Source: an uncultured Methanosarcinales archaeon
Lineage (GTDB): Archaea; Nanobdellota; Nanobdellia; Woesearchaeales; CAZYIM01
DNA length: 14,641 bases
Assembly: GCA_964647565.1 (NCBI GenBank)
Contig: CAZYIM010000051.1
Location: 1 to 14,641 of the forward strand
Reading direction: 5' to 3'
Part shown: positions 2,239 through 13,677 of the stretch, in pieces
Numbering within the stretch: the stretch's first letter is position 1
Layout of the letters: each line of letters starts with the position of its first letter
Made by a program: the position numbers and the translations under genes
The notes under the pieces: generated by a model
What the model saw: only the letters and a program-made list of their open reading frames with translations
What the model was told of the DNA's origin: nothing
Databases searched by the model: none

Positions 2239-3795
2239 ATGGATGATATTCTGAAGATATTAGAAGAAAGGATCAAAACCTGTATGAGTATACAACAGGA
2301 AAAGAATTTTCAAGGAGTAATTCACAAATTCAAACCAGCACATATAGAAATGTGTCATAAAAGCCACACAACCAAGAGCATATCTGCTTTTAACGGAGGC
2401 ATCACCCAGGAATTCATCGACCAACCAGTAAAAGCCGCAGGAATACGTGTGGGCGTGGGAATGGGCGACACTGAAAATGGCCTTGGTTTTTCACATAGTT
2501 ATGAAGACAGTTTACCCTTAAAGCCTGAGTTCATGAATAAATCATTGGCAGAACCAATAGACTTTGCACTCAAAGACTCATTCAAAACCTACTTCGATAT
2601 CCACAGCAATCAAATCCATTATAGCGATGAATTTTTTGATCGTCTCTCAAAAGAACCACCTCAAGTTTCTATTGAAGGAGAACAAGATGTCCCTGTTAAC
2701 GGCGAATTAAAGGAATTTATAAGAAAAATATCCGAAGAATTTTCTAGCCTGTCTTTCACACATAATTCAACAGCACTCTTTAAATCAGATATAACCTGCA
2801 TGAGGTATATTAATTCAGAAGGCTCAAAAATAAGAACATATCATGCTACCAATATAATAGGCATTAATGTGAATATTTGTGCTGAAGATGATGGTAGGAT
2901 TATTGAATATAATGATTATGTTTATTTTAATTCAGATATGAGCAATTTCAATCCTGAAAAAATAAAAAAGAAGATAACCTATATTAAAAAAATCTTAAAT
3001 AAATTATACAAATCAAGGGTCCAGCCATCTGGAAGCTATCCCGTCATTTTATCGCCTCGAGGAACAGGACATTTTTTTCATGAAAATATTGCAGCACATC
3101 TCCTATCTGCGAGGTATATCATAGAAAATGTAAGCACCGCCTATCGGGATAAAATGGGTGAACAAATCCTGCCAGAAGATTTAACCATTATTAATGATCC
3201 AACAAAACCAGGTAATGGACACTACACTTTTGATGAAGAAGGGGTACCCAGCCAACGTATTGTTCTTGTTGAAGATGGAATTCTTAAGAATTATCTTCAT
3301 ACCCGAATAACAGCAGGGCATATGGGCGTAAAGTCCAATGGCTGTGCACGATCGGGCTGTGTTTGCACACCACCCGAGCCAAGAATAGCAAATTTAGAGA
3401 TCAATGCAAAAGATAGATTATCAATGGATGAACTAATCCATACAATGCTGGTCAATTGCGAATCAAAGGGATTGGAATATGGTCTTTTAGTAGACACAGC
3501 AGGCGGCGAGGTTGATCCAAAATCTACTAGTTTCAAAATGTTTCCAAGAACTATTTGGCGGATATATCCAGACTATAAAAGGGAATTGGTTTCATCCGCA
3601 TATCTTATTGGAGACTCATTTGGTGCTGCAAGCAAAATCGCAGCATTCGGTGGCGATATTGAAAAAAGTCAGGGTTTGTGTGGCGCAGAGTCAGGAACAG
3701 TAAGAATAGAACAGTACAGCCCTTCATCCTTGGTCATTGGTTGCTCTGTTCAGCAGGAAGCCAGTGATAAACCAACACAAATGTTAACAGATTAA
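2239..3795 (+). CDS. TldD/PmbA family metalloprotease (TldD-like)
   Basis: YINSEGSKI, GSYPVIL...FFHENIAAH, LTIINDPT..G.YTFDEEGV....LVEDGILKNYL, SNG.AR, P.PRIANL and C-terminal GLCGAESG match TldD motifs. Confidence 0.9.
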   Translation: MDDILKILEERIKTCMSIQQEKNFQGVIHKFKPAHIEMCHKSHTTKSISAFNGGITQEFIDQPVKAAGIRVGVGMGDTENGLGFSHSYEDSLPLKPEFMNKSLAEPIDFALKDSFKTYFDIHSNQIHYSDEFFDRLSKEPPQVSIEGEQDVPVNGELKEFIRKISEEFSSLSFTHNSTALFKSDITCMRYINSEGSKIRTYHATNIIGINVNICAEDDGRIIEYNDYVYFNSDMSNFNPEKIKKKITYIKKILNKLYKSRVQPSGSYPVILSPRGTGHFFHENIAAHLLSARYIIENVSTAYRDKMGEQILPEDLTIINDPTKPGNGHYTFDEEGVPSQRIVLVEDGILKNYLHTRITAGHMGVKSNGCARSGCVCTPPEPRIANLEINAKDRLSMDELIHTMLVNCESKGLEYGLLVDTAGGEVDPKSTSFKMFPRTIWRIYPDYKRELVSSAYLIGDSFGAASKIAAFGGDIEKSQGLCGAESGTVRIEQYSPSSLVIGCSVQQEASDKPTQMLTD

Positions 3796-3932: not shown

Positions 3933-3998
3933 TTAATGGCTCTCTGGATTATCATCCCCCAAAGAATGTTATCTTTCTGATTCTCTGGGAGCCATTAA
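3933..3998. repeat. Stem-loop directly upstream of the Lrp/AsnC gene
   Basis: 12-bp stem TTAATGGCTCTC(3933-3944)/GGGAGCCATTAA(3987-3998) with one G-T pair, enclosing an inner AAAGA/TCTTT hairpin. Confidence 0.65.
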
Positions 3999-4008
3999 TT
4001 TTCCTCCT

Positions 4009-4419
4009 ATGAATATCGACAGCAAAGACATGCAGATAATTGAAGAGCTCAGAAAGGACGCTAGAGTTTCTATAAGGGATATTGCCAATAACATAGGCAT
4101 GAAACATCCAACAGTACACAAACGAGTCCAAAAACTGATAAAAAATAAAACCATTAAACACTTCACAATACGCGTGGATAAGGACTCGATCGGCGAAGGA
4201 TTTGTGGTGCTCGTTCTATTAAACAGAGGAAAACTTGAATTTGTTGATAAGGAGATAAAAGAAATCCACACAGTTTCAGGAGAGTATGATACCCTGTTGA
4301 AGCTACGATTCAAGGATGTAGATGAGTACAACAATTTCATAAAGAAGTTCAAAGAAAAACATCAATTAAAAAAAATAAAAACAATAATAGCCACCAAGAC
4401 AGAGAAAGAGATTATCTGA
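4009..4419 (+). CDS. Lrp/AsnC family transcriptional regulator
   Basis: N-terminal HTH (IDSKDMQIIEELRKDARVSIRDIANNIGMKHPTVHKRVQKL) and C-terminal RAM-like HTVSGEYDTLLKL. Confidence 0.93.
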   Translation: MNIDSKDMQIIEELRKDARVSIRDIANNIGMKHPTVHKRVQKLIKNKTIKHFTIRVDKDSIGEGFVVLVLLNRGKLEFVDKEIKEIHTVSGEYDTLLKLRFKDVDEYNNFIKKFKEKHQLKKIKTIIATKTEKEII

Positions 4420-4462
4420 GGATTCTTACCTCGCCCTTTTTGGCATCCACACCCCTCACATC
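4412..4462 (-). pseudogene. Possible remnant 3' end of a PEP-utilizer mobile-domain gene
   Basis: Minus strand reads DVRGVDAKKGEVRILR*, matching the C-terminus of the 7067-10066 protein (DKVEVDAENGVVRKL); no ATG, and an in-frame stop ~30 codons upstream. Confidence 0.45.
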
Positions 4463-4490
4463 TTCTGAAGAACCAAAATCCTGGTTAAAA

Positions 4491-12601: not shown

Positions 12602-12614
12602 AAAAAAAAGAAAA
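12602..12614 (-). terminator. Oligo-T terminator after the tRNA 3' fragment
   Basis: TTTTCTTTTTTTT directly after the fragment's discriminator base. Confidence 0.55.
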
Positions 12615-12645
12615 TAGTGGGGGAAAGATTTGAACTTTCGACTCC
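12615..12645 (-). repeat. Intron-less tRNA 3'-end fragment (T-arm + acceptor 3' strand), diverged direct repeat of the tRNA-iMet 3' end
   Basis: Minus strand GGAGTC-GAAAG-TTCAAAT-CTTTC-CCCCACTA versus spliced tRNA GGAGGTC-GGTAG-TTCAAAT-CTACC-CCCCGCTA; followed by TTTTCTTTTTTTT. Confidence 0.85.
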
Positions 12646-12664
12646 TTTGAACCTTGTTTGACCG

Positions 12665-12678
12665 GGTAAATTTATAAA
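12665..12678 (+). promoter_or_regulatory. BRE/TATA-like promoter of the LAGLIDADG gene
   Basis: GGTAAA-TTTATAAA, 44 nt upstream of ATG 12723. The TATA octamer is palindromic, so it could also fire on the minus strand. Confidence 0.5.
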
Positions 12679-12722
12679 GTAAATCATTTTTCCAATGTTA
12701 AGAGCATAATAGTTGTTAAAAA

Positions 12723-13445
12723 ATGTTAAATAAAATTTTCCTGAACAAAAAAGATAAGTTAAAAGGATTAAAAATACCTAAGGAATCAACAGAAGATTTA
12801 GCTTATTTGTCCGGAGTATTAGCTGGAGATGGAAGCCTAGGATATAGACAAAATAAGAACGAATATTCTCTTAAATGTGTTGGAAATCCAAAAGATGAAA
12901 AAGATTTTTATTTAAACATTGTCGGACCTAAATTCGAGAAAGTATTCGGATTTATTCCAACAATGAAGACTTTCGATAAGAATACCACTTTCGGATTTAG
13001 GATATTTTCAAAGTCACTAGTTTGTTATTTAACTCAAACCATTGGCCTCCCGCTAGGACCTAAAAATAACTCATTAAAAATCCCTTCTAAAATCAACACC
13101 AATAAAATGTTATTAATGAATTTTGTGAGGGGTTTATTTGATACAGATGGATCAATTTCATTTAAAAAAAGGTATAAACAACACCCTTATTATCCTGTAA
13201 TCTCATTCTCCTCCAGAAAAGAATCCTTCACAAAGGAAATTGCAGCATTTTTGAAAGAAGAAGGGTTTAAAATAGTAGAGATTTATAACTATAAAATAGA
13301 AGATAAAAGAATGAAAACAGGATTCACAATAATAAATAGAATTGAACTAAATGGAAATAAGAATCTGTCATTATGGATGACAAAAATAAGTTTTTCTAGT
13401 CCAAAACATTTAGAAAAAATAAGAAAATATGGAAGGATTAAATAG
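12723..13445 (+). CDS. Free-standing double-motif LAGLIDADG homing endonuclease
   Basis: Two LAGLIDADG helices with acidic catalytic residues: LAYLSGVLAGDGSL and FVRGLFDTDGSI. No intein splice motifs. Stop TAG overlaps the last 3 nt of the antisense tRNA. Confidence 0.92.
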   Translation: MLNKIFLNKKDKLKGLKIPKESTEDLAYLSGVLAGDGSLGYRQNKNEYSLKCVGNPKDEKDFYLNIVGPKFEKVFGFIPTMKTFDKNTTFGFRIFSKSLVCYLTQTIGLPLGPKNNSLKIPSKINTNKMLLMNFVRGLFDTDGSISFKKRYKQHPYYPVISFSSRKESFTKEIAAFLKEEGFKIVEIYNYKIEDKRMKTGFTIINRIELNGNKNLSLWMTKISFSSPKHLEKIRKYGRIK

Positions 13446-13462
13446 CGGGGGGTAGATTTGAA

Positions 13463-13488
13463 TTCGGTAACAGTCCTTCCGTCTGCTT
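13463..13488 (-). other. 26-nt tRNA intron at position 53/54 (T-stem/T-loop junction)
   Basis: Relaxed BHB: central helix CGGT/ACCG, bulges AG|A and AA|T, intron helix AGCAG/CTGTT; removal restores GGTAG-TTCAAAT-CTACC. Confidence 0.9.
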
Positions 13489-13528
13489 CTACCGACCTCC
13501 GGGTTATGAGCCCGACGGGCACTCCTGG

Positions 13529-13560
13529 TTAGGCTATAGCAAAAAATTAATTTTGCTAAT
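13529..13560 (-). other. 32-nt tRNA intron at position 15/16 (D-loop)
   Basis: BHB: central helix GGGC/GCCT, bulges AG|A and AA|C, outer helix TG/CA, intron hairpin TAGCAAAA/TTTTGCTA. Confidence 0.9.
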
Positions 13561-13599
13561 CTGCCCCACCCCGCTGTAACCCTGAAGAAAGAATGGGCC

Positions 13600-13612
13600 A
13601 TTTAAATATTTA
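13600..13612 (-). promoter_or_regulatory. TATA box of the tRNA-iMet gene
   Basis: TAAATATTTAAAT on the minus strand, ending 24 nt upstream of tRNA position 1. Confidence 0.6.
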
Positions 13613-13677
13613 ATGGTGCATCCAAGCAAAAACTTTAAATATTTGATTATAGAGCCATAGTAGTTAGGGGTGATTTA

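Follow-up and report, generated by a model that had tools for sequence, protein, structure and literature searches.

A free-standing LAGLIDADG endonuclease gene and an intron-bearing initiator tRNA gene as a candidate collaborative homing cassette in a DPANN archaeon

The window analysed here is the entire contig CAZYIM010000051.1 (C51; 14.6 kb) of the 86-contig assembly G000 (2.68 Mb, 38% GC, 87% complete), which belongs to a tiny (DPANN) archaeon whose relatives are small genomes of one order. It contains a free-standing LAGLIDADG homing endonuclease gene (12723-13445, + strand) lying antisense between two tRNA 3' ends of the same orientation that are 828 nucleotides (nt) apart, namely the intact end of an intron-bearing initiator tRNA (tRNA-iMet) gene at 13443 and a displaced, intron-less end at 12615; this arrangement had been described in an earlier reading made from the sequence alone (the sequence-only reading) and was confirmed. 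The locus is interpreted here, as probable but well short of certain, as a selfish cassette on tRNA-iMet, in which the endonuclease gene and a nuclease-less bulge-helix-bulge (BHB) intron would spread together by collaborative homing. As that term implies, the nuclease-less intron resides in the gene adjacent to the endonuclease gene, and the two co-occur.

Orthologs of the endonuclease were collected at a cut-off of E<=1e-40 from 401 genomes of the order (Woesearchaeota-type metagenome-assembled genomes, MAGs) and homologs at a cut-off of E<=1e-3 from 61 genomes (60 relatives and G000); the 61 genomes also supplied a control set of 30 tRNA-iMet loci, 28 of them without an adjoining ortholog. 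Orthologs were found in 24 of the 401 genomes, the named records among them being Candidatus Woesearchaeota or Nanoarchaeota MAGs, and 23 of the 24 adjoin tRNA-iMet in convergent or tandem orientation, while the gene at locus L102 adjoins a different, intron-rich tRNA. All 23 linked tRNA-iMet genes (96-181 nt long) are interrupted within positions 37-61, 15 of them by an intron at 53/54 and eight near 45/46, often with additional introns at 37/38 or 59/60, these positions having been assigned by eye with a possible error of 1-2 nt. In contrast, a single one of the 28 control genes has an intron in this region (G032, at 53/54); two have introns in the region of the D-loop and 25 are uninterrupted and continue into T-rich tracts. 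At one control locus (L037) a distant LAGLIDADG open reading frame (ORF) lies 245 nt upstream. Fisher's test for 21/21 against 1/28, two further linked loci having been read later, gave p=5.6e-13, a value that overstates the case because the genomes are akin to one another and not independent. A second collection of nine loci and one metagenome contig, some of which duplicate the first sample, was in agreement (tRNA visible in eight, interrupted in 8/8); the metagenome contig came from a protein search of such contigs, and its ortholog, of 46% identity, lies beside a multi-intron tRNA-iMet gene.

The junction signature of the 53/54 intron together with the iMet 3' end was present in 26 of the 401 genomes, distributed over more than 20 families. 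An endonuclease gene was found within 1.5 kb of 14 of these 26 intron alleles (11 convergent, of which L066 is truncated, and three tandem) versus one of 27 loci without the 53/54 intron (p=4.6e-5, likewise inflated by relatedness). A footprint directly after the tRNA, of CCTTCC type and corresponding to the final ~15 nt of the gene, which encode its last codons, was recognised in six of the 12 gene-less intron alleles, in six of the 11 convergent carriers and at none of the 27 intron-less loci, the motif having been defined after the data had been inspected and L069 being cut by a contig end. A stop-masked profile search downstream of the gene-less intron-bearing tRNAs gave L066 as the sole long pseudogene. 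In many families the 53/54 introns share the ends AAGCAG..CUGCCGAA and a GGAAGG loop, and the intron of G230 differs from that of the window at 2 of 26 positions.

The endonuclease gene encodes a single-chain protein of 240 amino acids (aa) and was identified by ORF reading and by a match to Pfam LAGLIDADG_3 (PF14528; E 3.7e-9; 37.1 bits, the cut-off being 22.5); an NCBIfam search of the protein gave 0 matches. Two LAGLIDADG motifs, LAGDGS (D36) and LFDTDGS (D142), are present with both catalytic aspartates kept, and G35-D36-G37, T141-D142 and K114 are invariant in 15 aligned homologs. The profile of this 15-homolog family matched intein endonuclease domains (3e-16), the 216-aa putative homing endonuclease 2dch (1.9e-12) and I-DmoI (1.6e-7), as well as PI-PfuI, with 1dq3 among the structures matched. 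The ORF lies outside both introns of the tRNA gene and on the strand opposite to it, and is thus free-standing. The two genes overlap tail to tail by 3 nt, the TAG stop codon (13443-13445) being the reverse complement of the last CTA of tRNA-iMet. Homologs occur in 28 of the 61 genomes (27 of the 60 relatives, and G000), and at the 17 free-standing loci that were fetched a tRNA gene or part of one was located near the ORF in most cases using ARAGORN, Rfam and inspection by eye. The two genes are mostly convergent, with 3' ends that overlap by 19 nt (L005), 12 nt (L009) or 14 nt (L014) or are separated by 2 nt (L006) or 5 nt (L008). G000 carries three LAGLIDADG_3 ORFs, all near tRNA genes. On contig C15, the ORF at 51291-51929 (- strand) comes after a tRNA 3' part (~52230-52160, -) with a T-arm insertion of ~42 nt after the T-loop, and on C33 the ORF at 26269-26511 (+) lies ~300 nt before an intron-containing tRNA gene (26822-26962, +).

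The intact tRNA-iMet gene was read by hand as a 133-nt precursor (13443-13575, - strand; 75 nt without its two introns) with the anticodon CAT at 13508-13506, an A1:U72 pair and A as the discriminator, and it can be aligned with 29 such genes from relatives. Because it has two introns, neither ARAGORN nor Rfam (E<=1) reported a tRNA in the window. Its anticodon-arm motif GGGCTCATAACCC occurs once in G000 and is the sole initiator-type anticodon arm of the assembly; therefore, splicing of both introns is expected, and one gene for the splicing endonuclease (EndA) was found in G000. The intron at 53/54 (26 nt; 13463-13488, -) was delimited by comparison between the 5' strand of the T-stem, GGTAG, and the T-loop, TTCAAAT. 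In its 4-bp central helix, ACCG of the intron is paired with CGGU of the exon, with a bulge of 3 nt on either side; the distal helix AGCAG/CUGUU shows covariation among relatives (G-C in G015, G-U, and A-U in G032), and the outer helix is weak, which corresponds to the relaxed form of the BHB motif. Homologous introns are found at the same site in G015 and G032. The intron that the sequence-only reading had placed at 53/54 is therefore present and of BHB type, but it is not the sole one: comparison with intron-less relatives (GGGCAGCCAGGAGTGCCC) identified a second BHB intron of 32 nt in the D-loop, after GGGCAG (13529-13560, -), which on hand analysis fits the BHB rule too and has a counterpart at the same D-loop site, with the same GCCTAA end, in G060 (L042). 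All BHB pairings were derived by hand. Neither intron is of the self-splicing group I type, as they are 26 and 32 nt long, carry the BHB motif and gave no Rfam match. Across the 2.68 Mb of G000, ARAGORN found only 18 tRNA genes, 17 of them with an intron, indicating that most tRNA genes of this assembly must be interrupted where standard finders fail.

The displaced 3' end (12615-12643, - strand) represents intron-less tRNA-iMet from about position 45 to position 73 (AGTC GAAAG TTCAAAT CTTTC CCCCACT A). It is directly followed by the oligo-T run TTTTCTTTTTTTT (12602-12614, -), which from its sequence was probably the original tRNA terminator, and the intron-less tRNA-iMet genes of relatives likewise continue into T-tracts. 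The sequence-only reading had assigned a terminator to the fragment and none to the intact tRNA; the T-run after the fragment was indeed found, but the intact tRNA also has T-rich runs (T4, T6; 13414-13427, -) 16-29 nt past its end, antisense to the Lys-rich C-terminus of the endonuclease, which are a possible present-day terminator. In G015, L064 and L085 a T-run comes directly after the tRNA. The repeat is above chance (local alignment score 31, reached in 0 of 100 shuffles), and in an ungapped comparison the fragment is identical to the intact tRNA at 17 of 20 positions in 54-73 and at 8 of 16 in 38-53, so that the match of 29 in 35 columns given earlier was not reproduced. As in integrative elements, a tRNA 3' part is thus found as a direct repeat at both borders. 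However, no recombinase or integrase ORF lies between the repeats, where, in keeping with the sequence-only reading, the LAGLIDADG gene is the only ORF of at least 60 aa, and no recombinase gene was recognised in the flanks inspected. A split-tRNA half was considered as a candidate for the fragment and ruled out: no 7-bp complement of CCCCACT occurs within 700 nt, and G000, at 87% completeness, contains neither [AG]GTGGGG with a D-arm nor a second GGGCTCAT..ACCC initiator arm. In the absence of both the 5' partner and the second initiator arm from G000, the fragment is regarded as a relic. Strain variation was observed at 12618 (T>C, +), where contigs of runs X1 and X5 carry G in place of A at tRNA position 70; G is the initiator consensus and restores the acceptor sequence, and the variant sites, on one contig each, lie 6 nt and 71 nt from contig ends.

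A second tRNA-iMet 3' end beyond the endonuclease gene, followed by a T-run, was found at five of the 24 ortholog loci (the window, G239, G377, G218 and G317). In the four of these brackets that have the 53/54 intron, the second end is identical to the intact tRNA at 17, 19, 20 and 19 of the 20 positions in 54-73 but at only 8, 5, 9 and 6 of the 16 positions in 38-53; therefore, similarity drops at the intron site, 53|54. The distance from 3' end to 3' end is 797-865 nt in four bracket cases. Positions 54-73 of the fragment agree with the tRNA variant of the respective genome (for example CTCCGCT in G377), and the decayed upstream part (ACCC..ACAARG) is shared among cassettes. A segment of this kind, conserved upstream of related endonuclease genes (ACCC..ACAARGTTCA) and collinear with tRNA positions 38-60, is located at 12645-12667 (- strand) of the window and is common to L051, L073, L091 and L094; it may be a tRNA relic of greater age, already decayed, that moves along with the cassette. 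In the endonuclease tree, the genes with a fragment are dispersed, the label requiring five changes, of which at least three are forced by well-supported branches. Two accounts fit these observations. Either the recipient's own 3' end was left at each invasion, the 54-73 copy being the right-hand homology, or there was a single old duplication, in which gene conversion ending at the intron has maintained the similarity of positions 54-73.

Evidence for mobility was sought in the distribution of the gene. Carriers form a minority of their families (for example, one of seven genomes in f16 and one of seven in f26), the tRNA-iMet-linked endonuclease genes form at least four clades, and those of family f24 fall in different subclades. 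Genome G007, whose RNase HII is the closest to the one in G000 (57% identical), has a tRNA-linked endonuclease that is only 30% identical to the one in the window; the orthologs, at 50-69% identity, are at least as alike as the flanking housekeeping ORFs. Empty sites, at which an intron-less tRNA-iMet gene is followed by rnhB with no endonuclease gene, were found in L045, L046, L027 and L026, while in G015, L059, L068 and L085 the endonuclease gene occupies the interval between an intron-bearing tRNA-iMet gene and rnhB, so that presence and absence at this conserved locus was observed between families and not within one species. The life cycle of a homing gene runs from invasion through decay to loss, with the intron left behind, and the finding that half of the intron alleles are gene-less, some of them with a footprint, fits such a cycle. 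Contigs of four DNA runs (depth ~3-5) showed no joints or empty-site form, and the exact 32-nt flank pattern had 0 matches in metagenome contigs. For window positions 13493-13526, the samples behind these DNA runs also hold tRNA-iMet genes of several other organisms with uninterrupted T-arms, and possible target alleles therefore co-occur in the community. The sequence-only reading had proposed that a minimal element invaded the initiator tRNA gene and displaced its old 3' end, and had named four comparative tests of this model. Homologs adjoin tRNA genes (the paralogs overlapping or touching the 3' ends of other tRNAs), a second tRNA 3' fragment recurs, the gene co-occurs with non-canonical introns and empty-site relatives exist, in which an intron-less tRNA-iMet runs into T-rich tracts; as each of these had been predicted, the model is supported.

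Under collaborative homing, the enzyme would cleave tRNA-iMet alleles that are uninterrupted, at a place in the variable/T-arm region close to the site of the 53/54 intron, for which the identity break at 53|54 in the four brackets is indirect evidence. The break would be repaired from the carrier allele, whereby the intron, the 3' exon and the endonuclease gene would be copied into the recipient. As the intron would split the recognition site, the carrier would be immune, and as the cell's own splicing endonuclease would remove the intron from the pre-tRNA, the insertion would cost little. With homology available only on the tRNA side, positions 54-73 of the recipient and its terminator would stay behind the cassette and would correspond to the fragment at 12615-12643. 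After fixation, the endonuclease gene would decay and be lost, and the intron would remain. A more elaborate version, offered tentatively and held to be rather doubtful, is that the displaced 3' end is the cassette's portable right homology arm and not debris. The mobile unit would then possibly consist of the intron, the 3' exon (54-73), the endonuclease gene and the decayed 38-53 copy, and might have the tRNA body to its left and the second 54-73 copy to its right. If this version were true, a cut at 53/54 in any intron-less tRNA-iMet gene would have matching sequence on either side, regardless of which genes lie nearby, and each homing event would install a BHB intron, with the recipient's 54-73 and terminator becoming the new arm.

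Several observations weigh against the homing interpretation. In eight of the 23 linked tRNAs the T-arm is uninterrupted, as it also is at L051, the nearest ortholog of all, from another collection, and a single site at 53/54 therefore cannot explain immunity everywhere; a target spanning approximately positions 36-58 would be broken by every observed intron position, but this is a guess. Paralogs adjoin intron-less tRNAs (L008, L009 and L017), so the intron is not needed for coexistence in general, and in L011 the intron status is reversed, as it is the displaced fragment that carries the T-arm intron and the intact copy that lacks it. Of the 26 alleles with the 53/54 intron, 12 are without the endonuclease gene. 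Part of the endonuclease tree tracks host families, with the f80 genes, for example, clustering together. Among the genomes compared there was no near-identical copy in a different genome and no empty allele of the same species, the orthologs being 41-70% identical, and therefore recent transfer was not demonstrated. The kinship-inflated Fisher values, the intron positions read by eye and the post-hoc footprint motif also count on this side.

Four other explanations were considered. The endonuclease could be a resident parasite of tRNA-iMet and the introns independent inventions of the host, selected because they destroy the site, which would make them scars of an arms race. That introns shield tRNA genes from mobile elements is an idea quoted in the available part of PMC3293823, and it would account for intron positions that differ among close endonuclease genes (53/54 in the window and ~29/30, 37/38 and 45/46 in its sister L051) and for the many linked tRNAs with 3-5 introns. 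However, the 53/54 introns are clearly homologous in many families, which is better explained by the spread of one intron than by repeated invention, and the sharp identity break at 53|54 in the brackets points to recombination there; host defence is therefore considered unlikely. An integrase-type element is less probable still. A virus or plasmid whose attP carried an intron-bearing tRNA 3' part would have integrated, and later deletions would have left the endonuclease as cargo. The same architecture is described, in the portion of PMC3293823 at hand, for Caldiarchaeum tRNA-Thr with a 1.8-kb recombinase-encoding insert, and G083 (L074) has a different, two-ORF insertion in the same tRNA. 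Against such a remnant, no integrase or recombinase ORF is present between the repeats of the window, the insert is always the endonuclease gene alone (~0.8 kb; 797-865 nt in four cases), 19 of the 24 filled sites have no repeat, and the same gene family is found on many different tRNAs.

It was also considered whether the LAGLIDADG protein has ceased to be a homing enzyme, has been domesticated and serves the adjacent tRNA, as a maturase-like splicing helper or a regulator, under vertical inheritance. The conserved, tight 3'-3' overlap with the tRNA is consistent with such a role, as is the conservation of the protein, which equals that of the flanking housekeeping proteins (ortholog identity 50-69%, equal to or above that of the flanking housekeeping ORFs). 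A service gene would, however, not be expected to show the patchy presence observed (24 of 401 genomes), nor to be dispensable for 12 of 26 tRNAs with the same intron, and the truncated copies and footprints (L066), the kept catalytic aspartates and the occurrence of at least four distinct clades on the same tRNA also make domestication very unlikely. Least probable of all, and scarcely to be credited, is that 12615-12643 is itself functional, be it as a split-tRNA 3' half, as an alternative 3' exon or simply as a terminator hairpin. Its perfect 5-bp T-stem and canonical T-loop would suit such a role, and the G at position 70 in some strains restores pairing with the iMet 5' strand; but the 87%-complete assembly has no 5' half or second initiator anticodon arm, the T-stem is A/U-rich, unlike the tRNAs found in G000, positions 38-53 are decayed in sister cases, and the fragment is absent from 19 of the 24 ortholog loci.

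Archaeal LAGLIDADG endonuclease genes of the I-DmoI and I-Tsp061I type and of inteins lie inside the rRNA BHB intron or the intein that they mobilise. The enzyme of the window belongs to the same protein family according to the profile search, and the same intron splicing system is used, but its gene is no part of the intron; it runs on the other strand and has its stop codon within the 3' end of the tRNA. Collaborative and trans homing are defined in the accessible portion of PMC2790892. As in collaborative homing by F-CphI, whose gene lies beside the intron-containing psbA of cyanophage S-PM2 (PMC6083498, available text), a free-standing endonuclease gene is found by an intron-bearing gene, and as in trans homing by T4 MobE with the nrdB intron, so far as the excerpted account goes, cutting of intron-less alleles would move both while the intron protects the carrier. 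These phage systems differ in that they involve group I introns and phage protein genes, whereas here a protein-spliced BHB mini-intron of 24-32 nt is found in a tRNA gene of an archaeal chromosome; F-CphI and MobE are Endo VII-like or HNH enzymes, whereas the present protein belongs to the LAGLIDADG family. The closest architecture is that of the Caldiarchaeum subterraneum tRNA-Thr(GGU) gene (Sugahara et al. 2012, PMC3293823, in the part available), for which an intron was proposed to have arrived with a mobile element and which likewise comprises an intact tRNA with a gained intron, an insert and an intron-less tRNA fragment. The Caldiarchaeum insert is 1.8 kb long, encodes a DNA recombinase and was explained in that text by attP x attB recombination, while the insert described here has no gene other than that of the homing endonuclease, in a pattern repeated in dozens of genomes. 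Phage T4 SegB, as the consulted section of PMC2330249 describes it, is a GIY-YIG homing endonuclease whose free-standing gene sits in a cluster of tRNA genes and which promotes the inheritance of its own region. It resembles the present case in the association of a free-standing endonuclease gene with tRNA genes, and differs from it in enzyme family, in residing in a phage genome and in having no introns, no overlap with a tRNA end and no partial tRNA duplication.

How archaeal tRNA genes gained many non-canonical introns is an unresolved problem. In a literature search, which did not cover subscription journals, archaeal tRNA genes with free-standing LAGLIDADG genes beside them were not the subject of any paper, and a 2026 preprint states that the arrival route of tRNA introns remains open, with neither 'homing' nor 'LAGLIDADG' occurring in its text. 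The present locus, with its relatives, suggests a concrete route amenable to bench experiments, in which an endonuclease would cut the uninterrupted tRNA gene and be inherited together with a small, protective BHB intron. Homing would also explain partial tRNA duplications without an integrase, and if, under the more doubtful version with a portable homology arm, the sister clades on other tRNAs behave likewise, LAGLIDADG genes would be a chief driver of the gain of non-canonical tRNA introns in DPANN and perhaps in other archaea. In addition, a set of natural LAGLIDADG enzymes has been identified whose targets would be known, highly conserved tRNA sequences.

Further features of the window and of related loci were recorded. 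The endonuclease gene is likely driven by a promoter at 12665-12678 (+ strand), recognised by its sequence, in which a GGTAAA resembling the B recognition element and the TATA box TTTATAAA lie 45 nt before the ATG; boxes of the TTTATAAA type are also found ~30 nt ahead of tRNA genes in relatives. For the tRNA, a TATA-like box was assigned by position only at 13600-13614 (- strand), ~30 nt upstream of the 5' end. The motif CACTGGACA was considered as a part of the element, being located upstream of many homologs (L002, L004, L007, L010, L013, L053, L054 and L059), and was rejected, as G000 has 13 exact copies, sometimes doubled (for example C1:140101, C2:91840, C23:25999, C24:39936 and C59:7354), and none at the gene of the window. 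About half of the copies in G000 sit, as judged by eye, ~13 nt before the TATA box of other genes, and the motif looks like the binding site of a promoter-proximal regulator common to the order. In L004, L015, L102 and L107 a conserved leader of ~80-110 nt separates the TATA box from the endonuclease start codon; it can fold into a long hairpin (GAGGACACGCAAAACT ... AGTTTCGCT..GTCCTC), is absent from the window and may be a structured 5' untranslated region of one branch of the family.

Other arrangements of tRNA parts were encountered among the loci. Two loci of other clades have related brackets: the 3' fragment of L011 starts within the anticodon intron and is the copy with the T-arm intron, and at L012 the tRNA 5' end is duplicated over 23 nt. 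L051 (WJKL01000090) has two dissimilar LAGLIDADG genes (2986-3717 and 3980-4477; 31% identity over the match) that flank one multi-intron tRNA-iMet gene. In L074 (G083:C3, oriented positions 535-610 and 1440-1524), two small antisense ORFs come after an intact intron-less tRNA-iMet gene, and past them lies a 3' fragment that starts at the anticodon (CATAACCC) and has the 53/54 intron and an endonuclease footprint; here, an older 3' half with the intron seems to have been displaced by another kind of insertion. Finally, the sequence around the tRNA and endonuclease genes of CAYTKI010000010.1 (L058), a record titled 'uncultured Methanosarcinales archaeon', is the same as that of G015, a genome of the Woesearchaeota-type order, and the title or the binning of this record may be wrong.

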